The position numbers and the translations under genes are program-made. 64,000 nt of DNA from an uncultured Gammaproteobacteria bacterium (lineage in GTDB: Bacteria > Patescibacteriota > Patescibacteriia > S139-126): contig CAZUKA010000001.1 of assembly GCA_964620905.1 (NCBI GenBank), positions 583,646-647,645 of the forward strand. The letters run 5' to 3'. The notes beneath the pieces were generated by a model, which was not told the origin of the DNA, ran no database searches, and saw only the letters and a list, made by a program, of their open reading frames with translations. Below, in pieces: positions 4,623 through 46,749 of this stretch; within the stretch, counting starts at the first letter, position 1, and each line of letters opens with the position of its first letter.

Positions 4623-5777
4623 GTGAAAAAAAATTATTCATCAAAAAAAGTGGCTATCTTTGGTGCTTTTGATATTATCCATCCTGGGCATATCCACTTA
4701 TTCAAACAAGCAGCTGCTCTGGGTGAAGTGATCGTAGTAGTTGCAAGAGATTCAACAATCGCCAAAGTCAAAGGCCAAACACCTTTTTATCCCGAAGCTA
4801 ACAGAGTGGCAACCTTAAAAAAAATTGATTGGCTGACAGAGGTTAGATTAGGACAGTCAGTCAATCCTTATGAAATTTTAAAAATTATTAAACCAGAAAT
4901 AATTCTCTTAGGACATGACCAAAAAATATTTATTGATCAACTACCTGAGGAATTAAAAAAAATAAATTTGCAGCCAAAGATTTTGCGCGCTCAACCGCTG
5001 GCTGAAAATTTTTTTAAATCTTCAAAAATTAGACCGGCCCTAGAAAATAATCAAGCTGGTTTTTTACTAATCAATAAACCAGCCGGTCTCACCTCGCATG
5101 ATATAGTCAATCAAGTAAGAAAAACATTAAACACCAAAAAAGTTGGCCATGCCGGCACATTGGATCCACTGGCTCAAGGGCTACTAATAATCGGTGTTAA
5201 AGAAGCAGTTAAAATGCTTTCTTGGTGGCACTATTTCACCAAAACTTATCAAGCACAACTGGTTTTTGGTAAAACCTCTGATACTTATGACGCTACGGGC
5301 CAAATAAAAAATATAACCACAAAAAAAATTTCCCAAGCTAAACTTGAACAAGCTCTACTGAACTTTATTGGTCAGCAAACCCAACAACCACCAATTTTCT
5401 CTGCCAAAAAAATAAAAGGGCAAAAGGCATACACTTTGGCTAGAAAAAATATAGCCGTTGAGCTACCTGAACAAACTGTTAAAATATACCAATCAAGACT
5501 AATTGATTTTTCTTGGCCAAATGCTGTTTGGAAAATTACTTGTAGCAGTGGAACATATATCCGCAGTTTAATTCACGATTTAGGACAAAATTTATCAACT
5601 GGTGCTATTATGACTGACTTAGTCAGATTGAAAATCGGCCCCGCCTCAATCAAATCATCAATCAAAGTTGAGAGTTTAAATAGCCACTACCCAACCCAAG
5701 GATACTTTTTATCACCACTATTTTTACTGGAAAAAATAAATGAATTATTTTTGGAAAATACTCAACTTAACTCTTGA
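4623..5777 (+). CDS. truB: fusion: RibL-like (archaeal-type FAD synthetase / HxGH cytidylyltransferase) N-domain + tRNA pseudouridine(55) synthase TruB domain
   Basis: N-term IFGAFDIIHPGHIHLF...VVARDSTIAKVKGQ...ILLGHDQ (nucleotidyltransferase HxGH). C-term LLINKPAGLTSHDIV...HAGTLDPLAQGLL (TruB catalytic Asp motif). GTG start. Confidence 0.7.
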   Translation: MKKNYSSKKVAIFGAFDIIHPGHIHLFKQAAALGEVIVVVARDSTIAKVKGQTPFYPEANRVATLKKIDWLTEVRLGQSVNPYEILKIIKPEIILLGHDQKIFIDQLPEELKKINLQPKILRAQPLAENFFKSSKIRPALENNQAGFLLINKPAGLTSHDIVNQVRKTLNTKKVGHAGTLDPLAQGLLIIGVKEAVKMLSWWHYFTKTYQAQLVFGKTSDTYDATGQIKNITTKKISQAKLEQALLNFIGQQTQQPPIFSAKKIKGQKAYTLARKNIAVELPEQTVKIYQSRLIDFSWPNAVWKITCSSGTYIRSLIHDLGQNLSTGAIMTDLVRLKIGPASIKSSIKVESLNSHYPTQGYFLSPLFLLEKINELFLENTQLNS

Positions 5778-33029: not shown

Positions 33030-33290
33030 CTAAATATTTTTAAGAATCTTTAATGTCTCTACTACCGATTTATTATCACTAGGCAAATAACGTACTTTTC
33101 CTTTATATAAGTATTCTAATTCAGTCAAAAATTCATCTGCCCATGAAGGTGACAGAGATATAATTCCGTCAAAATCAATCTCTACTACATCAGCTTTTTG
33201 ATCAAGGGTGGGACGAATGGCTAAAAACGCCTCTTTACCCGCGGGACGTGAGGTTAAAACTTTTCCAAATTTTTCAAGTTTGATAATCAT
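33030..33290 (-). CDS. STAS-like (DUF4325-type) small protein, putative antagonist partner of the upstream GHKL ATPase
   Basis: 86 aa; VVEIDFDGIISLSPSWADEF resembles the anti-sigma-antagonist Ser-loop; gene 4 nt after HATPase gene. Confidence 0.5.
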   Translation of the reverse strand: MIIKLEKFGKVLTSRPAGKEAFLAIRPTLDQKADVVEIDFDGIISLSPSWADEFLTELEYLYKGKVRYLPSDNKSVVETLKILKNI

Positions 33291-33294
33291 AATA

Positions 33295-34029
33295 TTAGTA
33301 ATTTATTTTTGAGATCACCCCTCTGATATTTCTATCTGCTATAGTTACCTTAAATGGCGCTGCGCGTTCAATCTCGGTCACAGCAATGCCGGATTGCAAA
33401 AAAATTTTAATTGAATGTTCTAGTGCCACTCCACGTACAAATTTAAGTCCATTACCTCTTTGTTCGGGCCATCGCCCAGATATTTTTTCCATAAATGCCA
33501 ATTTCAATGCCGTCATATCATTGTTAGCATCTGCTCGCACTTTGTTGATGGTTGCCCGAATACCTACTCCCCGATCAGCTAAAACCATAATCCTTTTATT
33601 AAGATCATGAGCAAAGAATATTCCCGGTACATCCGGCCAATTGCCGATATTGTGATCAAAAGAATTGTTACCTATCTCTCCAGCAACAGCAATAATCAGT
33701 GAAGCCAAGTCTTTGGTGGAATTTTCTTTATCAAGTAAAATGGCCATTTTATCCAAACGTACTTTAAATACGTCACGAGTTTCACAATAGTAATCAGGCG
33801 AAATATCAGGGACTTGTGCACTCCCGGCCCAAACTTTAGCGAGGGAGAATAAATCTTGGGAAAACAATTCAATCTGCTCGCGATGATAATAACGATGTCC
33901 ACCAGCACTGCGATAAGCTTTCAATTTACCACTAGCATCCCACAATCGCAGTGTATTTATAGACACACCTAAAAAATCAGCAACTTCGCTAATACTCAAT
34001 AAATCTTTATTTTTTCTTATTTCTACCAT
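33295..34029 (-). CDS. MerR-type HTH fused to GHKL (HATPase_c, RsbW/SpoIIAB-like) ATPase domain
   Basis: N-term ISEVADFLGVSINTLRLWDASGKLKAYRSAGGHRYY (MerR HTH); GHKL N-box EIGNNSFDHN, G1 LADRGVGI, G2 QRGNGLKF. Confidence 0.55.
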   Translation of the reverse strand: MVEIRKNKDLLSISEVADFLGVSINTLRLWDASGKLKAYRSAGGHRYYHREQIELFSQDLFSLAKVWAGSAQVPDISPDYYCETRDVFKVRLDKMAILLDKENSTKDLASLIIAVAGEIGNNSFDHNIGNWPDVPGIFFAHDLNKRIMVLADRGVGIRATINKVRADANNDMTALKLAFMEKISGRWPEQRGNGLKFVRGVALEHSIKIFLQSGIAVTEIERAAPFKVTIADRNIRGVISKINY

Positions 34030-35121: not shown

Positions 35122-35745
35122 TTATTTAAAATTCCATTCATCTTCTATATGCTTTTTAAAAATATTTTTGTAAATAATATTGTCAGTTTTACTAATACTA
35201 TAAGATCTTTTCACGGAACCAGCTATCATATCTGCCATTTGAATTAATACATTAGATTTTGAATTTATAAATTTACAATTTTTCATTACATTTTTTTGTT
35301 TAGAATTTAATTCTTTTCTTAAATAAGTAATAAAATTTTTTCTAAAATTTCTATTACCACCACCATCTATTCTAATTTTTGCATCTATTAATGATGGGCT
35401 ATGTTTTAATAACATCTTAACTGTGTATGCATAAAAAGAATTTTTATTATTTCTCAATTCTTGACTTATAATTGATTCTTTTTCTATAACTAAACATCTT
35501 ACTTTAAAACTAAATTCATTAATTGTTTCTAAAAATTTCAATTTTATTTCTTTTCTTGATTTATTGAACTTAAATTCAACGTGTTCACCAAATCCTAATT
35601 CTCTTCTTAACTCTTTAATAGCAACTGCGGTTTTTTCAGCTTCTAAATTATCTTCAAATATAATTGCTGCAATTACAAAATGCTCACTTGAACCTTCTTT
35701 AAATTTAAAACCTGGATCTCCTGAATCGTCAATAAAAACTATCAT
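35122..35745 (-). CDS. DUF3800-family protein
   Basis: N-terminal MIVFIDDSGDPG and C-terminal LIQMADMIAGSV motifs characteristic of DUF3800. Confidence 0.5.
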   Translation of the reverse strand: MIVFIDDSGDPGFKFKEGSSEHFVIAAIIFEDNLEAEKTAVAIKELRRELGFGEHVEFKFNKSRKEIKLKFLETINEFSFKVRCLVIEKESIISQELRNNKNSFYAYTVKMLLKHSPSLIDAKIRIDGGGNRNFRKNFITYLRKELNSKQKNVMKNCKFINSKSNVLIQMADMIAGSVKRSYSISKTDNIIYKNIFKKHIEDEWNFK

Positions 35746-35746
35746 A

Positions 35747-36514
35747 CTATTTTAGTATTAATTTTTGATAAACCTCACTACAAAGTTCTTTACTAAACTT
35801 ATTATCTTTATAACAGTCAGTTAAAAATTTATCCAATGACTTTAAACCATTAATCAAATATATTCCCGTGCCGCTGTCATTTATATATATAGAATTTTCT
35901 TTAATAAAAACTATGCCTAATTTTGGTTTAATAGAAAAATATCCAAGTTTATCCAAATACTTAATAAACAAATCCGAGTATTCTTGCATTTTAAACCTAG
36001 GATCTTTTTCCTGGGGTAATAATTTCCACTCTTCCTTATGACCAGTAAAAACAAAACATTTATCATTAGTAAAAACAAAATCATGACTATAATTTTTTAC
36101 TTCAAGAAGTATCAAACCTTTAGGGCCAATTACTATAAAATCAATATCAAACTGCCTATCCGGCAAGCGATAATTTTTGATAATAAAATATTCATTATTA
36201 TCTAAAATCTTGTTCAATTCATCAAAAACTAAACTCTCGCCTTGTTTGCCTTTTTTCGCTATATCTATCTCTTTTACAATTTTGTCATCAACCTTACCAA
36301 TAAAATAATAAATTTTTTTATATAATGGATAAAAACCAAAGCCCATCATAAATACAGTCAAAGCCACTATTGTTTGTACATCCCAACGACTATTTATAAA
36401 GCCATACCAAACCAAAATAGAGCAAGCTAATAATATAAATAAGCCAAATAACCAGTATTTAGCAATACCAAAATAATATTTTTTTTCAGAATAAGACCAT
36501 TTATCGAAAAACAT
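35747..36514 (-). CDS. membrane-anchored NERD-domain (nuclease-related) protein
   Basis: Two N-terminal TM; GESLVFDEL...DIDFIVIGPKGLILLEVKNYS matches NERD core; 1-nt gap to DUF3800 gene. Confidence 0.55.
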   Translation of the reverse strand: MFFDKWSYSEKKYYFGIAKYWLFGLFILLACSILVWYGFINSRWDVQTIVALTVFMMGFGFYPLYKKIYYFIGKVDDKIVKEIDIAKKGKQGESLVFDELNKILDNNEYFIIKNYRLPDRQFDIDFIVIGPKGLILLEVKNYSHDFVFTNDKCFVFTGHKEEWKLLPQEKDPRFKMQEYSDLFIKYLDKLGYFSIKPKLGIVFIKENSIYINDSGTGIYLINGLKSLDKFLTDCYKDNKFSKELCSEVYQKLILK

Positions 36515-36884: not shown

Positions 36885-37157
36885 ATTCCTCTTCCCACAA
36901 AGGAAAGAGGTAAATAAAAAATCGACCCACCTGCCATCGCTATACTCAGTCATTAGGGGCAGGCTTTTATCTTTCCCCAACTTGGGGCTGAATTTGGCAC
37001 CTTATAAAAGCGTCATCTTTTACAGGTTGCCGGGTAGGTCTTAGGGTCAGATCCCTCGCTACCACTCTGGATAAACTTAGGCTATTCAATTGTGACTAAA
37101 TAATACTACTAGCGAAGATTATCGTCAAATTTTATGTATGTAATTAATTATATAATT
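36885..37157 (-). other. ~270-nt noncoding, locally GC-richer structured segment ending in minus-strand hairpin/U-tract (possible ncRNA or structured UTR)
   Basis: Multiple perfect short hairpins (CCCCAAGTTGGGG; GGTAG...CTACC; CCTCTTCC...GGAAAGAGG) and no ORF with RBS. Confidence 0.2.
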
Positions 37158-37874
37158 TTATTTAATTTGAAAATTTAAATATTTATTCCAATGTCTATAA
37201 AGTTCTCTAGTTGCGAAAAGATCTCTTCCATTATATTTAGCAATATCAAAATATTTTTTATCATTAAATAATTTACCAACATCTTCGCCAGTAACCCCTC
37301 CTGATTTAGGACTTTCAATTTCAAATGCTCTACACCAAAGATGTAGACTCCCTTTTTTCCAAACTGCACCATAATAGCTCAGTTGATCCATTAAATCTAT
37401 ATGTATAAAATTATGCTGCTGATATAAATAACGGCCGGACATTATATCTTTACTGGGTCTAATTTCATGTATAGCGGAACGAATATTTATGAATGGGGCA
37501 TCGAAAGATCTACTATTAAAACCAACCAGTTTATCTGCATATGAAACAACTTCCCAAAATTTTTTTAATATTTCTTCTTCTAACATTGCTTCGAATTTTA
37601 TGCCATCAATCTCTTTTGTTATATTTTCAACATCTGGTGACTGATAATAAACAGCCCCACTGTCACTATCTGCATCCAATAATCCAATTGAAACTATCTC
37701 ACCATGTAAAGGGGAAAAACCAAGACGCTTCTTTAATAATTCAACATTATTTTTAAAATCTTCTTCTGATTCTGAATTTTCCTCATACCACTTAGTTAAA
37801 TTATGCTGAGTAGTGGCATCCATTTCTTCAAATTTTTCACCAACTGTCTCTATATCAAAAATTATAGTTTTCAT
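37158..37874 (-). CDS. DEDDy 3'-5' exonuclease (PolB-exonuclease-like / RNase H fold)
   Basis: Exo I IIFDIET, Exo II LVGFNSRSFDAPFI, Exo III YNGRDLFATRELY. Confidence 0.6.
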   Translation of the reverse strand: MKTIIFDIETVGEKFEEMDATTQHNLTKWYEENSESEEDFKNNVELLKKRLGFSPLHGEIVSIGLLDADSDSGAVYYQSPDVENITKEIDGIKFEAMLEEEILKKFWEVVSYADKLVGFNSRSFDAPFINIRSAIHEIRPSKDIMSGRYLYQQHNFIHIDLMDQLSYYGAVWKKGSLHLWCRAFEIESPKSGGVTGEDVGKLFNDKKYFDIAKYNGRDLFATRELYRHWNKYLNFQIK

Positions 37875-37883
37875 AAATAATAA

Positions 37884-38339
37884 TTAATTTGATCCATTTT
37901 TTTCTAAGTTATTTAAAAGTTTAATAACCTCATCTTCTATTGATAAGTCTAAATTCTTATCATATATTTTCTGATATAGTAAAGGAAATCCACCATTAGC
38001 ATATTCTTCAATTATTTTTAATACTTCAGTTCCATTAGATAATATATTATAATCATAATTACTTTCCGCTAATACTAAAGATCTTATTAAAACTTTATAA
38101 TCATTTGAAATACTTCTATAAAGCCTTATATCAGTACTTTTATTTGTTTTTTTTCTATTTTTATTTAGAAAACCAAAAACAGCAGCTAAAATAAGAACGT
38201 GGCCTTGTTCCTGACCAGAAAAACAAGTACCAGCATTTTTGTCTATTAAAGGTATTAAATAATCATTTTTGATCTTTAAATCAAGTCTTATGAATTGTGG
38301 ATAATTTTGATCAATTTCGTTTGTCATGATATGGAACAA
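37884..38339 (-). CDS. hypothetical protein, overlaps 3' end of ATPase gene by 29 nt
   Basis: 151 aa, no motif. Confidence 0.3.
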   Translation of the reverse strand: MFHIMTNEIDQNYPQFIRLDLKIKNDYLIPLIDKNAGTCFSGQEQGHVLILAAVFGFLNKNRKKTNKSTDIRLYRSISNDYKVLIRSLVLAESNYDYNILSNGTEVLKIIEEYANGGFPLLYQKIYDKNLDLSIEDEVIKLLNNLEKNGSN

Positions 38340-40239
38340 TTATTGTAGATTGTTGATTAATAGGGTCTTTCTGAAGTTGATATACTCGATTTTTTGGTAC
38401 CCTATCTTTAATATATTCTTTAATCTCATGATCGTCTAAACTAAAAATAAACATCTGTTTATTTGGAGCATAATCATGAAGTATTTCTAAAAGATTTCTT
38501 TTTATATCCCCCCCTAAATTTGAAAGTGGGGCATCAAAAAATATTGGCGTTTCATTAAATCCACTAAGATCAGCTATGGCTCTCATTGTTGCTAAAGCCA
38601 AAACTTTACCTTCTCCTATTGATAATTCATTTTTATTAGTAACTTGGTTTTTCATTTTTACATTTATACCATAAAATTCATTAAATTCTATTAATTCATA
38701 TTCTTGTTCATCCCAAAACAATTCTCTAAAATATTTTTCTGTATTATGAGATAAAATATCTCTAATTCTATTAGTAATATGTTCCCTAATAGTATGTATA
38801 ATTTTTTCAGAAATCTGTAAAAAATCTTTTATTTTAATTGCTTCTAAATTTTTTTCTTTTAGCTTACTATACTTATCAAACTGTTCTTCTATTTTTACTA
38901 GATTATTTAAATCATTATTATTTCTTTCCTTTAATTCTCCGAGTTTAGTCTGATGTTCGCCAATTCTATTTTCTAAATCTGTTAAAGCTATTTCTATATT
39001 AGAAACCTCCTTATTACTTGAATTTCCTAATTTTTCTTTTATTTCTTTCAATTCTCTGTCGATTTCATTTTTTTGTATATAAATTTTTGCTCTTTCAGTA
39101 GTTAATAACTCTAAATCTTTTTTTAGTTTATACAATCCATCTAAAATACTACTGATAATAACTTTATCACTGCCAATAGCGGAACGAACGCTAACTGGTT
39201 CATATTCAGTCATGAGTTTATTTAGTGCTATATAAGAACCATCACTTTTATTTATATCTCTACCACAAATACAAACTCCTTTATTTAATATTTCTTTAAT
39301 ATAAGCTACCTCAATATCTGCGGGTAATTTGTATTCGTGTAAATCATTATACGATTTAATTAATATTTCTTTAAGATATAAAAAAGATGTTTTTTCAGTA
39401 AGTAATTCATTAATTCTTATTTTTATTTTATCGAAATCTTCTTCTTTAATTTTAAATTCGGATTCTAATTTATCCCTTCTTTCAGCTAAATCTTTAATAT
39501 TACTATATGTTTTTTGTTCTTTTTTATATTCATTGAGCTGTTCTTTAAGTTTACTAATCTCAATTTCTTTATCTTTTATTTTTTCATTATTCTTTTCTAT
39601 CTCATTTTTTAATTTATCCATTTTTTCAGTCATTTCTTCAAGCTCAGGAATACCCTTACCTACTTCTTTTCTAAATGTAGAAATTATATTATTAAGGTGT
39701 TCAATTGAACGATCTAAGATTGTTACATCAGATACACTCCAAACACCGTCACGTAATTCTTTTTCAAAGCCGGGCTTATATAAATGTTCTAGATTTTCAC
39801 CTGCAAAAATAAAATATTTTCTTAAATTTTTTGGTAAATACACATTTCTAACGGTTTCTGGATTTGGAACAAGTTTCCAATCATTTTTATCCAACCTGTA
39901 AACATTAAACTTCGAATCTTGGGTTGGTCTCATAGATCTTACAAACCTATATGTATTATTTTCATCAGAAACTTGGATATCTACTTTAATCTCATCAAAT
40001 TCGTTTTCTTTTTCTGCGTCTGTATTTAATATTCCATCACTTAATAAATTTTTTTGCTCAATACTCTGTGTAAAAGGAATCTCTTCATAAAGACACCAAC
40101 AAATAGCATTTAAAAAATTTGATTTACCTAAATAATTTTTACCTATAAAAATAAATATACCAGAACTAGGATCTGGTTTTATTTCTACTTGTCTAAATCT
40201 TTTAAAATTTTGAATATAAATTCTATCAACCTTTATCAT
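38311..40239 (-). CDS. SMC/Rad50/RecN/DndD-like coiled-coil ABC ATPase
   Basis: 642 aa; N-terminal Walker A IFIGKNYLGKSN; ~350-aa K/E-rich coiled coil; C-terminal ABC signature LSIGEGKVLALA and Walker B PIFFDAP. Confidence 0.65.
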   Translation of the reverse strand: MIKVDRIYIQNFKRFRQVEIKPDPSSGIFIFIGKNYLGKSNFLNAICWCLYEEIPFTQSIEQKNLLSDGILNTDAEKENEFDEIKVDIQVSDENNTYRFVRSMRPTQDSKFNVYRLDKNDWKLVPNPETVRNVYLPKNLRKYFIFAGENLEHLYKPGFEKELRDGVWSVSDVTILDRSIEHLNNIISTFRKEVGKGIPELEEMTEKMDKLKNEIEKNNEKIKDKEIEISKLKEQLNEYKKEQKTYSNIKDLAERRDKLESEFKIKEEDFDKIKIRINELLTEKTSFLYLKEILIKSYNDLHEYKLPADIEVAYIKEILNKGVCICGRDINKSDGSYIALNKLMTEYEPVSVRSAIGSDKVIISSILDGLYKLKKDLELLTTERAKIYIQKNEIDRELKEIKEKLGNSSNKEVSNIEIALTDLENRIGEHQTKLGELKERNNNDLNNLVKIEEQFDKYSKLKEKNLEAIKIKDFLQISEKIIHTIREHITNRIRDILSHNTEKYFRELFWDEQEYELIEFNEFYGINVKMKNQVTNKNELSIGEGKVLALATMRAIADLSGFNETPIFFDAPLSNLGGDIKRNLLEILHDYAPNKQMFIFSLDDHEIKEYIKDRVPKNRVYQLQKDPINQQSTIIVPYHDKRN

Positions 40240-40243
40240 AAAA

Positions 40244-40417
40244 TTAAATTGCAGAATTTAATAACTCTTTTACTTTATTCTCTATAGCACTTTTATATGC
40301 AAATCTATCTAAATCAATATTTTCTTTTTCAAATTCTGTAAGCCATAATAAAAAATTTTGAACCTCTTCTGAAGCATCTACTAAACTATTAATTTCACTT
40401 ATTATATCAGGATTCAT
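40244..40417 (-). CDS. 57-aa ORF (MNPDIISEINSLVDASEEVQNFLLWLTEFEKENIDLDRFAYKSAIENKVKELLNSAI), translationally coupled between helicase and ATPase genes
   Basis: Start in TAATATG overlap with upstream stop; 4 nt before ATPase start; below the 60-aa ORF-track cutoff. Confidence 0.35.
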   Translation of the reverse strand: MNPDIISEINSLVDASEEVQNFLLWLTEFEKENIDLDRFAYKSAIENKVKELLNSAI

Positions 40418-40418
40418 A

Positions 40419-42524
40419 TTATAAATAAATTTTATATTTTTTCATAGTTTCTTTCAAAACTTCATAAGATACTGACGGATTTTCCGAAGTATCTACAAAG
40501 TCTCTTATACGTTCAAATTCTTTTTTTAATATTGAATGCTCAATTTTATCATCTATTTCATCTAAATTTTTTGGTGGTAATACAAAAACATCATATATCT
40601 CTGCAACTTTTTTATCAAGTGCTTTTCTTAATACCCTTCCTCTTCTTTGAATATATTCTCTAGAATTAGTTGTGCTTGCATTAATTATAGCAATTTTTGC
40701 TTCAGGTATGTCAACTCCTTCATCAAGAATTTTAACAGCTACTAAAACTTGATATTCTCCTTTTGCAAATGATTTAAGTAAATAATCTCTGTCATCCGAA
40801 GATTCATCTTCAGTAATTTTATGGTTTAATAAGTTCATTTCATTTAATATTTTTTGAATAGATTCTACTTGTTTTTTATTATCACAATAAATAAGAACGT
40901 GTTTTAAATTTGTTTTATATTTTAAAATTAATTTTTGTAAAATGTGTTTTGTAACTTCAATTTTGTTATGTGCATTTTTCAATATTCGACTCCTAAATAA
41001 CAATAAATTTTTAATATTTTTATTATTAAATATATTTTCTTTTTGAAATTTTTCATACATTAATTTACGTGAAATTTTTTTTGAAATTTCATAATACTCA
41101 TCATACTCTTCAAGCGATAGATAAGAAGGTTCGGGATAATAATTATACGGTGTTAGATATCCATCATCTATGGCATCTTTTATTGTGTACTCAAATACTA
41201 TCTTGTTAAAATATTTTATTATAATTTCTGTTCCTTCTTCATCAAAATGTCTACTGGGAGTTGCAGAAAGACCAATTCTTTTAGAATAAAGATCTAGCAA
41301 TCCATTTTGTGATTCTGGAGCGCCAGCATTATGTAACTCATCTGCAATATATAAAAAATTACTAGGGTCTATATTAAATGAATTTAATATTTCTATGAAG
41401 TTTTTGCTTGCTAAACTGCCATATAAACCAACTATAAATATATGTTTTATTCCATTTTTATTAAATCCTGGTAAAATCATTTTAAGATTTTTTTTCCAAA
41501 TATTTGCATTTCCATGAACTTCAATAATAGGGACTCCGGGAAACATTATTTGAATATCTTTGTCTATCCATTGTCTAACTAGATGTTCATATGGCATAGC
41601 TATAACACAAATCAATTTATTTGAATCAAATAAATTTTTTACTATTGAAAGGGCTGTTTTTGTTTTTCCTGATCCGGTAGCCATAGATAGAATTCCCTTA
41701 TAATTATTTGATAACCATGATTTCACAGCTTTTTTTTGATAATCTCTCAATTCAAAAATACTTTTATTAACCGGCATTTCATTTGTTAACTTGTTATTAT
41801 TTCTATCTTCAAATAATTTTTTTAATGGGTATTTATCGATATTAATCTTATCTGATTCTTCTGGTGCAACACTAATAATTTTATTTTTTACTGCGTTTGG
41901 TAAATCAAATACATAGATATTATTTGCTGAACCATTCCAATACTTTTCAAATAATTGTATATCCCTATCCAAATACCTTTTTTGTTCGTCATTCCATCCA
42001 CAAAAAACTTTGAATTCCTCAATATTATATTTCCATCCTCTTGCAGATTCATTATTTGAACCACTAAATGATATGATATTATTTTTTTCATCATACAAAA
42101 TACCCACCTTTTGATGTAATAAATTTTTTTGTTTACCTATAGCAATTTTTAATTCTAATTTATTATTAAATAACATCCAACCAAACGCTGCTATATGATT
42201 CTTAAAAATATTATTTTCTAAATCCCACTCATGAATCTCATTCATAAGTAATTCTTCAAGCTTTTCAGGGTTATTAACTAAATCATTTATTATTATATTA
42301 TCGTCTTCTTGTAATTCATGGTTTACAATCATCTGTATTTTCCCTGACTTTTTTATAAACCTTGATAAACCTTGTGATGCTACTGCAAAAGTGCTAGATG
42401 AAAAAAAACCACCTATTCTTTTATATTTTATTGATTCTGATAGAGCAGGAATATAAAAATCATCCAAAATATTATCCTCGTCTGAATTATATGAAATCTT
42501 AATATTAATATCTTTTAATGACAT
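40419..42524 (-). CDS. PLD-like (HKD) nuclease domain fused to SF2 (ResIII/DEAH-type) helicase
   Basis: 701 aa; HKD motif HQKVGILYDEKNNIISFSGSNN; helicase motif I MATGSGKTKT, II IADELHNAG, III LSATPSR, VI QRRGRVLRK. Confidence 0.7.
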   Translation of the reverse strand: MSLKDINIKISYNSDEDNILDDFYIPALSESIKYKRIGGFFSSSTFAVASQGLSRFIKKSGKIQMIVNHELQEDDNIIINDLVNNPEKLEELLMNEIHEWDLENNIFKNHIAAFGWMLFNNKLELKIAIGKQKNLLHQKVGILYDEKNNIISFSGSNNESARGWKYNIEEFKVFCGWNDEQKRYLDRDIQLFEKYWNGSANNIYVFDLPNAVKNKIISVAPEESDKINIDKYPLKKLFEDRNNNKLTNEMPVNKSIFELRDYQKKAVKSWLSNNYKGILSMATGSGKTKTALSIVKNLFDSNKLICVIAMPYEHLVRQWIDKDIQIMFPGVPIIEVHGNANIWKKNLKMILPGFNKNGIKHIFIVGLYGSLASKNFIEILNSFNIDPSNFLYIADELHNAGAPESQNGLLDLYSKRIGLSATPSRHFDEEGTEIIIKYFNKIVFEYTIKDAIDDGYLTPYNYYPEPSYLSLEEYDEYYEISKKISRKLMYEKFQKENIFNNKNIKNLLLFRSRILKNAHNKIEVTKHILQKLILKYKTNLKHVLIYCDNKKQVESIQKILNEMNLLNHKITEDESSDDRDYLLKSFAKGEYQVLVAVKILDEGVDIPEAKIAIINASTTNSREYIQRRGRVLRKALDKKVAEIYDVFVLPPKNLDEIDDKIEHSILKKEFERIRDFVDTSENPSVSYEVLKETMKKYKIYL

Positions 42525-42542
42525 AATTATGATCTATAATAT

Positions 42543-43289
42543 TTACTTTTCATAACTACTACGTGCGTTCCACCATGCACAATATTCACATTCTTCTCCT
42601 GATTTGGGCATTTTATTACTTTCTAAACATGCTTTTATTTCAAAAATAATAGGTTCCACCCAAGAATCATCCCCGTCATGAGAAATAAGCTTAATATCAA
42701 ATTCAATTTTTTTATCAAATGCCTGTTGATCATATTTGCCAGTACAATAAACAAAATAACCAGTATTAGAAACTTTTAATTTGTTTTTACGTAATATCCA
42801 TTGATACACTTCCATTTGTCTTTTATATGACTCATGCCATTTACCCTCTAATTCTTCAACGGGATTATTTTTTGCCGTAGCTTTATAATCAACAACTATA
42901 TATTCACCTTTTTTATTAATCCATAAATCATCAATTGCCCCTGTCACTAATATATTTGTGTTATCATGTAAATATTGAACACCCTTAAAATTTTCTCTCC
43001 ATTCATCAATTTTTTTATGTGCTACTGGTACTGCATCTATTTTATATTCTTTTTGCAACGGATGTTGTTTGTTCTTAGCTCTATAAACATCAAATTCTTG
43101 CTTTAATTGATAATCTACAGCTTTATTTAATTGAAAAGATGGTATGGACGGTCGTTTTGTTCCTAATTTGTTATCCACATAAAAACAACGAGGGCATTCT
43201 TGAAATAAACCAATTTTTGCTCTACTTAATTTCCAATTTTTACCACCATAATTCCATGATGGGCCTCTATGTGGAGTGTAATCAGGCAT
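42543..43289 (-). CDS. Cas4/RecB-family PD-(D/E)xK nuclease with Fe-S cysteine cluster
   Basis: 248 aa; N-term CPRC, nuclease motifs GAIDDL...EYIVVDYK, QxxxY (KRQMEVYQWI), C-term C-x13-CEYC. Confidence 0.6.
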   Translation of the reverse strand: MPDYTPHRGPSWNYGGKNWKLSRAKIGLFQECPRCFYVDNKLGTKRPSIPSFQLNKAVDYQLKQEFDVYRAKNKQHPLQKEYKIDAVPVAHKKIDEWRENFKGVQYLHDNTNILVTGAIDDLWINKKGEYIVVDYKATAKNNPVEELEGKWHESYKRQMEVYQWILRKNKLKVSNTGYFVYCTGKYDQQAFDKKIEFDIKLISHDGDDSWVEPIIFEIKACLESNKMPKSGEECEYCAWWNARSSYEK

Positions 43290-43298
43290 AATTATTTT

Positions 43299-43889
43299 TT
43301 ATCCTACTAAACCTAACTTTTTTAAAATATCAGTAAAAGCAACATACTCTATATTATGTTCTTTATAAAAAGCTAAACTTTCTTGCAATTCCTTAGTTTG
43401 AAAATTTTTATCTAATAGGTCACCAAAAGCAAATTTTTTTTTAGCTTCATATTCTTGATATCCTACCAATACTATTTGCAACGGTTTGTTATACAAAGAA
43501 GGTACCTCGCCATATTTCAAAGGTACCCCCAAAATTTTTTCACCTGCTGTTCCGGTAGTAGTCCAGTTTCTGCCTTTTACTTCATATACATATTGATCAC
43601 ACTCTAAATCTGGCTGATAACCTTTTTTACTTAATTTACTTTTATAAATTTTAGCTTTCCTAACATTTTTCCTACCCAATCTTGTCAAAGCTTCCATGAC
43701 TAAATCTTGACACAACTTAGTTGTCCATTGACCACCGCCATTACCTGCTGTAACTTTGTCACCCCATTCATCTTCAATTTTTTTGGCTCTGTTTAAATCA
43801 GTCTGTCTACTGGTTGTTGCTAAAGTAACGTCGGTTATACCTTGGTAGCACCATTTGATTACTTCTGGATTGTCCAATAAACTTGCCAT
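43299..43889 (-). CDS. putative type II restriction endonuclease (PD-ExK) cognate to adjacent methyltransferase
   Basis: 196 aa; YQPDLECDQYVYEVKG (PD...EVK); 3-nt gap from MTase gene. Confidence 0.4.
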   Translation of the reverse strand: MASLLDNPEVIKWCYQGITDVTLATTSRQTDLNRAKKIEDEWGDKVTAGNGGGQWTTKLCQDLVMEALTRLGRKNVRKAKIYKSKLSKKGYQPDLECDQYVYEVKGRNWTTTGTAGEKILGVPLKYGEVPSLYNKPLQIVLVGYQEYEAKKKFAFGDLLDKNFQTKELQESLAFYKEHNIEYVAFTDILKKLGLVG

Positions 43890-43892
43890 TAA

Positions 43893-44714
43893 TTATTTTA
43901 TTAAATCTTTAAATCTCTTTTTTGATAAATCGAGGTATTTCTTTTCCATATCTATACCAACAAATTTTCTTTCGTTTAAAACAGCTGCGAGTCCAGTGGT
44001 AGAACTACCAGTAAAAGGATCAAGCACAACATCTCCTTTGTCTGTGCTGGCTAAAATAATACGCACTAAAAGATCGATTGGTTTTTGTGTAGGGTGTTTG
44101 CCAAACTTTTTTTCATCTTTTTTTGGCGGACGAATTGCCCACACACTGCGCATTTGCAAATCTGGTTTTTTTAAAAAATCTTCCTGCCACTTACCATGCT
44201 TCATCAATTTATAATTGAATTTGTGTTTAGCTTTTTTTTCTTTCCGGGCCCAGATAATTGTTTCGTGACTAGCAGTAAAAAAACGACAACTTAAATTTGG
44301 TGAAGCATTGGGTTTAAACCACGCTATGTCGTTTAAAATATGATAGCCCAATGCTTGAATGGCATGACCACATTGATAAATAGAATGATACGTTCCGCTT
44401 ACCCAAATTGTTCCGCCTGGTTTTAAAACCCTCTTACATGCTTCCAGCCATTTGAAATGAAATTCATAGTCACCATTAAAACCTTTACTTTTATCCCATT
44501 CACCTTTATTAACACTTACTCTCCTGCCAGCATGGACGGAAAAGCCACCATTGGAAAGATTGTATGGAGGATCAGCAAATATCATATCTATGGAATTACC
44601 TGGGAGTTGTTGTAAAAACTCCAAAGAATTCGCCTGATATAAAACAAAGTTATTTGTTTTAAAATAAGGCTTTTCCTTAACTGGCGCTAATATTTTTTTA
44701 TGCTTTTTAAACAT
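43893..44714 (-). CDS. beta-class amino-DNA methyltransferase (N6-adenine or N4-cytosine)
   Basis: 273 aa; motif IV IFADPPYNLS near N-terminus, motif I VLDPFTGSSTTGLAA near C-terminus (IV-TRD-I order). Confidence 0.8.
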   Translation of the reverse strand: MFKKHKKILAPVKEKPYFKTNNFVLYQANSLEFLQQLPGNSIDMIFADPPYNLSNGGFSVHAGRRVSVNKGEWDKSKGFNGDYEFHFKWLEACKRVLKPGGTIWVSGTYHSIYQCGHAIQALGYHILNDIAWFKPNASPNLSCRFFTASHETIIWARKEKKAKHKFNYKLMKHGKWQEDFLKKPDLQMRSVWAIRPPKKDEKKFGKHPTQKPIDLLVRIILASTDKGDVVLDPFTGSSTTGLAAVLNERKFVGIDMEKKYLDLSKKRFKDLIK

Positions 44715-44756: not shown

Positions 44757-45524
44757 TTACTGACATGCGCCGGAGGAAGAAACGGTTATACCGGCAAGGG
44801 TTGCCTGACAAGAGTTACCATAAGTTTCTCCGTCACACCCGCACACTGGTGAATAAATCAATGCACAAGCTTGGGGTTTGGTTTTACACTCACCCACTTG
44901 GTTACACTGTCCTACTTCTTTGGCACAATATTCACTAGCTTCACAATCACTACTTGATTGGCAAGTATTTAGACACTGCCCGTTATATTCTACACTCACT
45001 CCCGCGGCTCTAGCTTGGCAAGAGTTGCCATAGGTTTTACCATCACAACCACACACCGGAGCATACTGCAAAGTACAAGCTTCAGATTTGGCTACACACT
45101 CACCACTACCACCACATTGACCGGTTTTGTATTCACAATAAAAATTGGTTTGGCAGTCAGTGTCAGTTTGGCAAATATTGCTTGGCGGTTCTTGGGCTGG
45201 TGGTTGATTGTTGGGTGCTTGATTGTCTTGATTGTTCTGTTGCGGTTGGTTGTCTGTTACCACTGGTTCATTGTTAAATACCGGCTCATTGGCAGGTGAA
45301 GGTTCATCGGTTATTACTACCTCACCTGTTTCAATTGTATCATCTACTACTATATCTTCTGTGGGAGTAAACTCTTCTGGTTCAACCACCTGCACTGTTT
45401 GCGTATCAGTTTGACTGGTAAAGTCAGAAACTTTTTTGTCGCCTGCTTGTTGCCACCACCAAATTGCAACTCCCAAAAGCAAGATAAGTAAAAGAACAAT
45501 TATAATATATATATTTTTGCGCAT
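44757..45524 (-). CDS. membrane-anchored secreted protein with Q/N/P-rich linker and two Kazal-like domains
   Basis: CTLQYAPVCGCDGKTYGNSCQARAAG...C and CALIYSPVCGCDGETYGNSCQATLAG...C match Kazal spacing (PVCG.DG.TY.N.C). Confidence 0.55.
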   Translation of the reverse strand: MRKNIYIIIVLLLILLLGVAIWWWQQAGDKKVSDFTSQTDTQTVQVVEPEEFTPTEDIVVDDTIETGEVVITDEPSPANEPVFNNEPVVTDNQPQQNNQDNQAPNNQPPAQEPPSNICQTDTDCQTNFYCEYKTGQCGGSGECVAKSEACTLQYAPVCGCDGKTYGNSCQARAAGVSVEYNGQCLNTCQSSSDCEASEYCAKEVGQCNQVGECKTKPQACALIYSPVCGCDGETYGNSCQATLAGITVSSSGACQ

Positions 45525-45702: not shown

Positions 45703-46749
45703 TTATTTAAAATAATTACCAACAGCATCTTCAAACTGCTCAATAAATATTTGTTTAAAATAAGAAATATTATTTATTTCATAAAATAATATAACGGCTT
45801 TTTTATACTCCTCAACATCCACTATTCTATAAGAAAGCGGAATAGAATTATGCGCCAACAAAATAGCATTGGAAATCATACGAGAAGTTCTTTTGTTGCC
45901 ATCTTCAAAAACTTGAATATAAGCGATAAGAATTGAGATTAAAAAAGCCTTTTCAAAAAATGATTCCTTCATATTGATTAGCTCAACCATATTTTGCAAT
46001 GCCTCTTTGATTTGTAGCTCATTATCCAAGGGTCTATATTTTGTGCCAGTAACTCCAACGCCTTCTTTCCTGATATTTTTAGAAATCCCAAGTTTTTTGG
46101 TTAAAACAGAATGGATATATTCAATATCAGCGCTGCGTAATTTAATAAAACGTTCTCTATTTTGAATAGCTTCATTGAAAGCGTCTTTGTGATTGAGAAT
46201 CATCTGAGTTTCTTCTTTAGTCTTACCTTTTCCGATGACATTATTTTTAATCAAAGCTTCCGTGCCTAAAAGCGAATAAGTATTCCCCTCAATGGCCGAT
46301 GACTTCCAAGAAAATTCAATCATTATCCGTTCAAACTCCTTATTAATGATTGTTTGACTGTCATATTTGGAAAAATTCTTAATAAATTCCCTTTGTAATT
46401 TTTCCAGTTTCTCTTTTTCTTCAGCTGAAAAAATATTATTACTCAAAATATTAAATATTTCAAAATTGAAACTTTCTTTTACTTCTCTTTTGAGATAAGG
46501 GACGGAAAAATATTTTTCAATATCTACTTCTTCTAAAATCTTAAAAGTTTTTGACAATAAATAAACAGTACTTTTGCCTGTACCTTTTTTAAAAACTAAA
46601 AATTTATCTTCCAATTCTTTTAAATCCCTTTGTAAAGTTTTTCTGTCAATATCTAAACGCAAAAAAGACAAAATCTCAACAAGTGACACCTCTGCCTTAT
46701 CTTTCATAAAAGCAGTTATTTTATTTTGTCTTATTTGTTTTTTATTCAT
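45703..46749 (-). CDS. Fic-family protein with N-terminal winged-HTH
   Basis: 348 aa; Fic motif VFEDGNKRTSR (HPFxDGNGR-like); N-terminal LVEILSFLRLDIDRKTLQRDLKELE wHTH-like. Confidence 0.7.
   Translation of the reverse strand: MNKKQIRQNKITAFMKDKAEVSLVEILSFLRLDIDRKTLQRDLKELEDKFLVFKKGTGKSTVYLLSKTFKILEEVDIEKYFSVPYLKREVKESFNFEIFNILSNNIFSAEEKEKLEKLQREFIKNFSKYDSQTIINKEFERIMIEFSWKSSAIEGNTYSLLGTEALIKNNVIGKGKTKEETQMILNHKDAFNEAIQNRERFIKLRSADIEYIHSVLTKKLGISKNIRKEGVGVTGTKYRPLDNELQIKEALQNMVELINMKESFFEKAFLISILIAYIQVFEDGNKRTSRMISNAILLAHNSIPLSYRIVDVEEYKKAVILFYEINNISYFKQIFIEQFEDAVGNYFK

Follow-up and report, generated by a model that had tools for sequence, protein, structure and literature searches.

The window analysed here, a stretch of 64 kb taken from a contig of ~717 kb (CAZUKA010000001.1), very probably carries a complete and apparently intact solitary copy of the pbeABCD defence cassette on its minus strand (37884-42524), with the adjoining exonuclease being a separate gene and the restriction-modification (R-M) pair upstream being independent of it. 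A sequence-only reading of the same DNA had proposed that these four genes and the exonuclease formed a single, undescribed five-gene defence system. Both halves of that proposal were overturned: four of the five proteins, rather than all of them, match a described system in the same order, namely PbeABCD, whose gene content and order have been published (PMC6459918, PMC10853773) and which is already represented in PADLOC, and the fifth, the exonuclease, shows no co-conservation with Pbe, whichever of the two is taken as the starting point. The first four genes were assigned to PbeABCD because their profile matches, motifs, sizes and order fit the published system. What had been flagged as a possibly new defence system is thus a copy of PbeABCD; for this reason it should not be pursued as a discovery, and its main value lies in correcting the record.

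Gene content, motifs and relatives of the cassette

The pbeABCD genes have been described as a co-transcribed four-gene cassette encoding a helicase-type PbeA and an SMC-like PbeC, together with a PbeB of 66 amino acids (aa) and a PbeD of 152 aa (Xiong et al., Nat Commun 2019, PMC6459918). In a re-annotation, PbeA was interpreted as an HKD endoDNase joined to a superfamily 2 (SF2) helicase, PbeB as a rapidly evolving small protein, PbeC as a 'CxC' ABC ATPase belonging to a sister clade of DndD, and PbeD as the cognate of DndE, and the PbeABCD type was named the CxC ABC-ATPase/DndE-centred system (Krishnan, Burroughs, Aravind, NAR 2024, PMC10853773). The copy in the window comprises, all on the minus strand, pbeA (40419-42524; 701 aa), encoding a single-HKD nuclease fused to an SF2 helicase of the XPB/ResIII-like type, pbeB (40244-40417; 57 aa), encoding a small acidic protein between pbeA and pbeC, pbeC (38311-40239; 642 aa), encoding a CxC-type ABC ATPase that has an inserted coiled coil, and pbeD (37884-38327 and 147 aa from an ATG start, or 37884-38339 and 151 aa from a TTG start), encoding a dnd_assoc_4 protein. 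The tight packing of five minus-strand open reading frames (ORFs), the exonuclease included, was confirmed from the sequence, as were the distances of 4 nt (TTTT) between the pbeB stop and the pbeC ATG and of 9 nt between the pbeD stop and the exonuclease ATG. Two junctions required amendment. The string TAATATG, said to be shared by the helicase stop and the start of the 57-aa ORF, is present but reads TAA-T-ATG, so that one spacer base separates the two codons and they do not overlap. The reported 151-aa ORF with a 29-nt overlap into pbeC holds for the TTG start, whereas the called ATG, which lies in frame 12 nt downstream and is the start annotated on the identical public contig (L001), gives 147 aa and an overlap of 17 nt.

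The strongest profile evidence comes from PbeA, which matches the PADLOC PbeA model PDLC02707 with an E-value of 2.4e-217, residues 2-684 aligning with positions 1-666 of the 672-position profile, and NCBIfam TIGR04095 dnd_restrict_1 ('DNA phosphorothioation system restriction enzyme') over residues 256-698 (E 2e-123). Pfam reported no PLD domain in PbeA, but its N-terminus is matched by NCBIfam NF042964, a PLD-like anti-phage protein (residues 12-320, E 1.7e-25), the protein also matches PADLOC PLD_Helicase (E 1.9e-16), and its helicase half is recognized by the Pfam families ResIII, Helicase_C and DEAD. A single HKD motif (H137-x-K139...D145, followed by G155-S156-x-N158) and helicase motifs I, II, III and VI (MATGSGKT 281-288, DELH 395-398, SAT 420-422 and QRRGR 626-630) are invariant across 23 homologues. 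XPB and XPB-like helicases were the nearest solved relatives, and the only ones, in a sequence search of the PDB. The fusion of a single-HKD PLD nuclease to an SF2 helicase, as already proposed from the sequence, is thus borne out by NF042964, PADLOC, the three Pfam helicase families and the invariant motifs.

PbeC matches the PADLOC PbeC model PDLC02723 (E 1.2e-81) far better than the DndD models (E 1e-31), and its match to TIGR03185 DndD (E 4e-28, 98 bits) falls under the cut-off of 245.85 bits; the Rad50, SbcC and SMC profiles gave weak N-terminal matches, all far under their cut-offs. Matches to AAA_23, AAA_15 and SMC_N in Pfam, with a long coiled coil, agree with the earlier description of a coiled-coil ABC ATPase of the DndD type. 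Its Walker A (GKNYLGKS 33-40), the diagnostic CxC motif in the middle of the coiled coil (C323-I-C325) and Walker B (FFDAP) recur in every one of the 21 PbeC homologues encoded next to a PbeA. On the opposite strand of pbeC, at 39329-39901 (plus), lies a 190-aa ORF of low complexity, rich in Ser, Leu and Ile, which is almost certainly the mirror of the Lys/Glu-rich region coding for the coiled coil and not a gene.

PbeD matches NCBIfam TIGR04062 dnd_assoc_4 ('DNA phosphorothioation-associated protein 4'; E 6e-11), and a match to Pfam PF27807 DNA_S_mod_dnd_assoc_4 is precomputed for the identical 147-aa product on the public contig as well as for its counterparts in the three nearest Pbe loci (L011-L013), to which PbeD is 49-69% identical. 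PbeB, an acidic protein with an isoelectric point of 4.2 and a net charge of -7, had no profile match in Pfam, PADLOC or NCBIfam searches; it is 36-49% identical to the ORFs of 58-66 aa found at the same position in these three loci.

Gene order supports the same assignment. The three nearest PbeA relatives, at 48-54% identity, are each encoded in the order A, small ORF, C and D, and D is followed there by unrelated genes, be it a Dam-like methyltransferase, HNH/TIR genes or small ORFs. Each of the other 20 Pbe loci that could be resolved has A followed by C and an ORF of 142-202 aa, with either a small ORF or a space of 126-225 nt separating A from C; a space of this size between pbeA and pbeC was found in 22 of the 22 loci measured. 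When the neighbours at 21 resolved loci were clustered all against all, nothing recurred with the window except A, C, the small ORF and the ORF of the size of D, and the exonuclease was a singleton. The top PADLOC matches of the helicase and the ATPase were all Pbe models, and Rad50/Mre11-like pairs, Lamassu, Gabija, DISARM, DndFGH and Type I/III R-M systems were ruled out on this ground; the REase_I, Cas3, Dpd and DndD models of PADLOC are tens to hundreds of orders of magnitude weaker than those of Pbe.

The cassette was classed as 'solitary' because no dnd genes lie nearby. A scan of 20 other ORFs of the window, 19 of them at least 285 aa long, gave no match to a Dnd family, nor did the genes of the island, and the adjacent dndC, dndD, dndE and dndA of the form coupled to phosphorothioation (PT) were not found in the window. 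They are also absent from the three nearest Pbe loci. A class-V aminotransferase of the size of DndA occurs near Pbe, mostly directly upstream, in 8 of 20 more distant loci, four of which additionally encode a DndC-like protein; in the one distant locus that was scanned (L096), a DndC-like (PAPS_reduct + Fer4) and a DndA-like (Aminotran_5) protein are encoded upstream of pbeA. Such solitary cassettes have precedent, since dndCD is lacking within 10 kb of 320 out of 553 pbeAC pairs (PMC6459918) and CxC systems without PT genes are common (PMC10853773).

Compared with the PbeABCD prototype of Haloterrigena jeotgali A29, the window copy has the same four genes in the same order and with similar sizes (~60 aa for B, ~150 aa for D), whereas the prototype lies directly downstream of dndCDEA and requires PT marks, the window copy being without dnd genes in 64 kb. 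It further differs from the archaeal prototype in belonging to a Patescibacteria-like bacterium and in having an R-M pair and a Cas4-like gene upstream and an exonuclease downstream. As in the CxC ABC-ATPase/DndE systems, the fourth gene belongs to the dnd_assoc_4 family, taken to be the cognate of DndE (PMC10853773). Methylase-linked versions of these systems carry cytosine-5 or permuted N4 methylases and an MTaX1 domain (PMC10853773), whereas the sole methyltransferase near the window cassette belongs to a separate Type II R-M pair. With the DndD-DndE pair of DndABCDE, the cassette shares a PbeC homologous to DndD and a PbeD placed as the DndE cognate by the published analysis; unlike PbeC, however, DndD has no CxC hook, DndC and DndA are missing from the window, and the partner is a nuclease-helicase and not a sulfur-transfer enzyme. 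Rad50/Mre11 (SbcCD) likewise combines a coiled-coil ABC ATPase bearing a cysteine-based zinc hook with a nuclease gene beside it, but the coiled coil of the window ATPase is about half as long, and the adjoining exonuclease is of the DEDDy type and not an Mre11 phosphoesterase, nor is it co-conserved.

The exonuclease and the genes upstream

The gene that follows pbeD (37158-37874, minus strand; 238 aa) encodes a DEDDy 3'-5' exonuclease of the PolB-exo2/RNase H-like type, as originally suggested: it matches PF10108 DNA_pol_B_exo2 in Pfam (E 1e-17), and its DEDDy residues D7, E9, D125, Y214 and D218 do not vary among 21 homologues. Its homologues, 235-243 aa long and 55-66% identical to it, number more than 3,100, those that are named being nearly all from Patescibacteria, and the gene is present in at least 521 GTDB species genomes. 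The metagenome-assembled genome (MAG) JBGPML01 holds two copies (loci L029 and L035). A literature search on PF10108/DNA_pol_B_exo2 yielded nothing relevant and no described function for the family, and PDB sequence searches with the exonuclease yielded nothing useful.

Judging from gene neighbourhoods, the exonuclease gene stands on its own, is widely conserved in Patescibacteria and is no component of Pbe, because co-occurrence is absent in both directions. PbeA, PbeC and PbeD were all missing within 8 kb of the exonuclease at each of the 80 loci retrieved; conversely, a homologue of the exonuclease is missing from all three nearest Pbe loci and was found within 8 kb in 0 of ~50 full-length metagenomic PbeA loci. 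Its neighbours elsewhere include TGT, an amino-acid-kinase family protein, peptidase M3 and a glycosyltransferase, as well as PIF1 helicases, an AbiEii-like ATPase, an R-M fusion, an AAA_13 ATPase and an SMC_N protein. A divergent gene of ~90 aa lies beside it in ~15 loci and encodes ribosomal protein L27 in the one that was scanned (L015). In the four contexts first looked up, those of the closest or most widespread homologues, the exonuclease is the last gene and begins 3-11 nt after unrelated defence-like or DNA-helicase genes, namely an MTase-Mrr fusion (MTase, methyltransferase), PIF1 with a 69-aa ORF, EcoRII/Dcm/Vsr with AAA_13, and a Type IIG R-M gene with SMC_N. On the strength of this arrangement in four contexts out of four, it is conceivable, though improbable, that the Patescibacteria-wide family serves many defence operons as a promiscuous partner in end processing; housekeeping genes are frequent among the neighbours in the wider sample. 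The widespread exonuclease family may deserve a study of its own.

In this genome, the exonuclease is probably co-transcribed with Pbe. From 44714 to 37158, eight co-directional genes follow one another with gaps of 3, 9, 18, 1, 4, -17 and 9 nt, and a terminator-like hairpin lies in the 298-nt gap downstream of the exonuclease (36888-36910, minus strand), where a 9-bp stem with five G-C pairs, read from 36910 to 36888, is followed by AATTTTTATT, a match to consensus only. It is the only good hairpin of this kind. A promoter scan was uninformative in such AT-rich DNA, with 69 sites against 68 expected.

Base composition bears on the same question. The G+C content is 24-27% across 38001-43000 as against 35% in the whole window, and that at third codon positions (GC3) is 0.09-0.15 in the four Pbe genes as against roughly 0.27-0.42 in flanking genes, in line with the AT-richness claimed for the module relative to its flanks; GC3 is 0.18 for the exonuclease, 0.27 for the upstream MTase and 0.23 for its 196-aa neighbour. 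The window is bacterial, as it encodes UvrB, PolA, GyrA, ribosomal protein S1, HolA and an ECF sigma factor, and for several genes of the island the homologues indicate Patescibacteria. The Pbe cassette of this Patescibacteria-like bacterium is part of a low-GC, horizontally acquired defence island, as the sequence-only reading had recognized, and the neighbours named in that reading were confirmed as a Cas4-like PD-(D/E)XK protein, an MTase with a 196-aa nuclease, a NERD protein and a DUF3800 protein.

The Cas4-like PD-(D/E)XK nuclease gene (42543-43289, minus strand) ends 18 nt upstream of pbeA. Its product matches PF12705 PDDEXK_1 (E 8e-13) and PADLOC Cas4 (E 1e-9) and has cysteines 32, 35, 234 and 237 in a CxxC...CxxC arrangement. 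It is absent from all other Pbe loci examined, and in 3 of the 80 Patescibacteria loci (L051, L061, L078) a homologue, 53-57% identical, is encoded just downstream of the exonuclease. Here, the Cas4-like gene and the exonuclease flank the Pbe cassette, both with a low GC3 of 0.17-0.18.

Further upstream, the R-M pair (43299-44714, minus strand) consists of an N4/N6 (N6_N4) MTase (43893-44714) and the adjoining 196-aa PD-ExK restriction endonuclease (REase; 43299-43889). This REase is 70-79% identical in hundreds of Patescibacteria MAGs, which is unusually conserved for a REase. On account of this identity the protein was considered as a core hypothetical, an interpretation overturned by its invariant PD...ExK motif, a PADLOC REase_II match and a fold match; PDB sequence searches with it gave nothing useful. 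Its homologue lies directly beside an N6_N4 MTase, without Pbe, in both other loci examined (L174 and L175), and the nuclease is absent from other Pbe loci examined. The two genes form a Type II R-M pair that is independent of Pbe and is found without it as well. In L174, a DndB-family (PF14072) gene directly precedes the R-M pair. The possibility that the upstream MTase is the self-marking partner of Pbe was set aside as the principal interpretation because this MTase has its own conserved PD-ExK restriction enzyme. The two nearest complete Pbe loci, by comparison, have a lone D12-class (Dam-like) MTase adjoining the cassette (10593-11513 in L011 and 7055-7945 in L013), with no obvious restriction enzyme in either locus, which agrees with the published suggestion of a possible pairing of dnd-less Pbe with methylation.

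Probable mode of action and competing explanations

The protein families and the two papers suggest a mode of action in which PbeC would dimerise via its coiled coil and CxC zinc hook and, together with PbeD as a DndE-like DNA binder, would survey DNA for a self mark or a feature of foreign DNA. PbeA would then translocate by ATP-driven SF2 activity and block or cut the invading DNA, and its single HKD domain would have to dimerise to build one active site. The acidic 57-aa PbeB may be an obligatory small subunit or a regulator. In the one experimental model, in which Natrinema expressed the Haloterrigena jeotgali genes, protection required the full set of four and depended on PT marks, and viral DNA replication was halted with no visible degradation (PMC6459918). 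The HKD domain, on the other hand, has been argued to imply DNA cleavage (PMC10853773). An intact dnd-less Pbe in a reduced Patescibacteria-type genome, with three closest relatives that are equally dnd-less, provides a clean example for the question raised by both papers as to what solitary Pbe/CxC systems sense and whether they cut DNA.

The requirement for PT in the experimental system, the listing of inactivity by its authors among the explanations for solitary pbeAC (PMC6459918) and the lack of dnd genes among the ORFs scanned in the window are compatible with the cassette being a silent or PT-dependent orphan, either served with PT marks by dnd genes elsewhere in the genome or, if there are none, inactive. 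This is rather unlikely, since the catalytic and structural motifs are all intact, the reading frames are uninterrupted and the three nearest relatives retain the same intact dnd-less four-gene cassette, the last point arguing for selection on a PT-independent function. Less probable still is an extended operon, in which the MTase would provide the self mark to a dnd-less Pbe and the Cas4-like protein and the exonuclease would be lineage-specific accessory nucleases. The run of eight co-directional genes with small gaps (44714-37158), the MTases near many solitary Pbe (155 of 320; PMC6459918), the cytosine methylases reported in PMC10853773 and the lone Dam-like D12 MTases of the two nearest complete loci lend it some support. 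However, the MTase has a cognate PD-ExK REase whose homologue pairs with an N6_N4 MTase without Pbe, the GC3 values of the pair are unlike those of the Pbe genes, none of the other Pbe loci examined has the Cas4-like protein, the 196-aa nuclease or the exonuclease, and the MTases beside the relatives are of another class, D12 and not N6_N4.

Equally improbable is the narrower proposal that the dnd-less Pbe has here recruited extra nucleases, the exonuclease downstream and the Cas4-like protein upstream, and works independently of PT, the exonuclease then processing the ends or nicks that PbeA would produce in DNA with its HKD domain. As for the five genes being one undescribed system, with the DEDDy exonuclease as the obligatory partner of the ATPase in an Mre11-like role beside Rad50, the junctions of 1, 4, -17 and 9 nt, the low GC3 common to all five and the single terminator-like hairpin after the exonuclease speak for it. 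It is nonetheless highly improbable, given that PbeABCD, already described, accounts for four of the five genes in the same order, that no other Pbe locus examined has the exonuclease and none of the 80 exonuclease loci has Pbe, and that in the compact Patescibacteria-type genomes the exonuclease begins 3-11 nt after unrelated genes elsewhere.

Several observations weigh against the assignment of the window genes to a solitary PbeABCD, or against parts of it. The closest other Pbe locus is 54% identical in PbeA, and there is consequently no truly close relative for a test of synteny. The PADLOC search suggested in the sequence-only reading recovered PbeA and PbeC but matched neither PbeB nor PbeD. 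Two of the NCBIfam matches fall under their curated cut-offs, PbeA scoring 412.8 bits against TIGR04095 (cut-off 600 bits) and PbeD 42.7 bits against TIGR04062 (cut-off 74.25 bits). No DndE was retrieved in PDB sequence and profile searches with PbeD, and a single-sequence AlphaFold2 (AF2) model of this protein, with a predicted local distance difference test (pLDDT) score of 40.7, is unusable for testing the DndE fold of two ribbon-helix-helix units; the strand-helix-helix pattern that occurs twice in this low-confidence model is at most suggestive. The steps of the mechanism are drawn from protein families and from PMC6459918 and PMC10853773, which disagree over whether DNA is cut. With regard to the separation of the exonuclease, its 9-nt spacing from pbeD, its low GC3 of 0.18 and the position of the hairpin mean that it could be co-transcribed with Pbe and have a lineage-specific functional link to it. 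Finally, the search for dnd genes covered the 64-kb window, and dnd or ssp genes bearing on the PT dependence of the cassette may lie elsewhere in the genome.

Other genes of the island and the window

Downstream of the exonuclease, the island continues with a 93-aa ORF and with genes for a NERD protein (255 aa) and a DUF3800 protein (207 aa), the latter two being 1 nt apart (35122-36514, minus strand), with GC3 values of 0.23 and 0.11, respectively. The DUF3800 protein matches the PADLOC candidate family PDC-M04A (E 3.7e-14), and a homologue with 61% identity is encoded ~2 kb downstream of the exonuclease in another locus (L047). On the other side of the cassette, beyond the R-M pair, a low-GC gene for a Fic-domain protein (45703-46749, minus strand; PADLOC SoFic, E 2e-17) adjoins one for a 255-aa protein (44757-45524, minus strand) that has, unusually for a bacterium, two protease-inhibitor domains of the Kazal type. 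It was considered whether the island is common to the window and the nearest Pbe locus; this was rejected, as the upstream Fic genes here and in L011 align over one short segment at 33% identity.

At the edge of the island, a MerR/HTH protein of 244 aa (33030-34029, minus strand), the N-terminus of which matches PADLOC mad1 (E 3e-13), is followed after 4 nt by a DUF4325 STAS-like protein of 86 aa, and the two may constitute another small defence or regulatory pair. Away from the island, the gene at 4623-5777 (plus strand) encodes a TruB (tRNA pseudouridine-55 synthase) apparently fused to an N-terminal cytidylyltransferase-like domain of ~110 aa, as indicated by matches to TIGR00125 and rfaE domain II.

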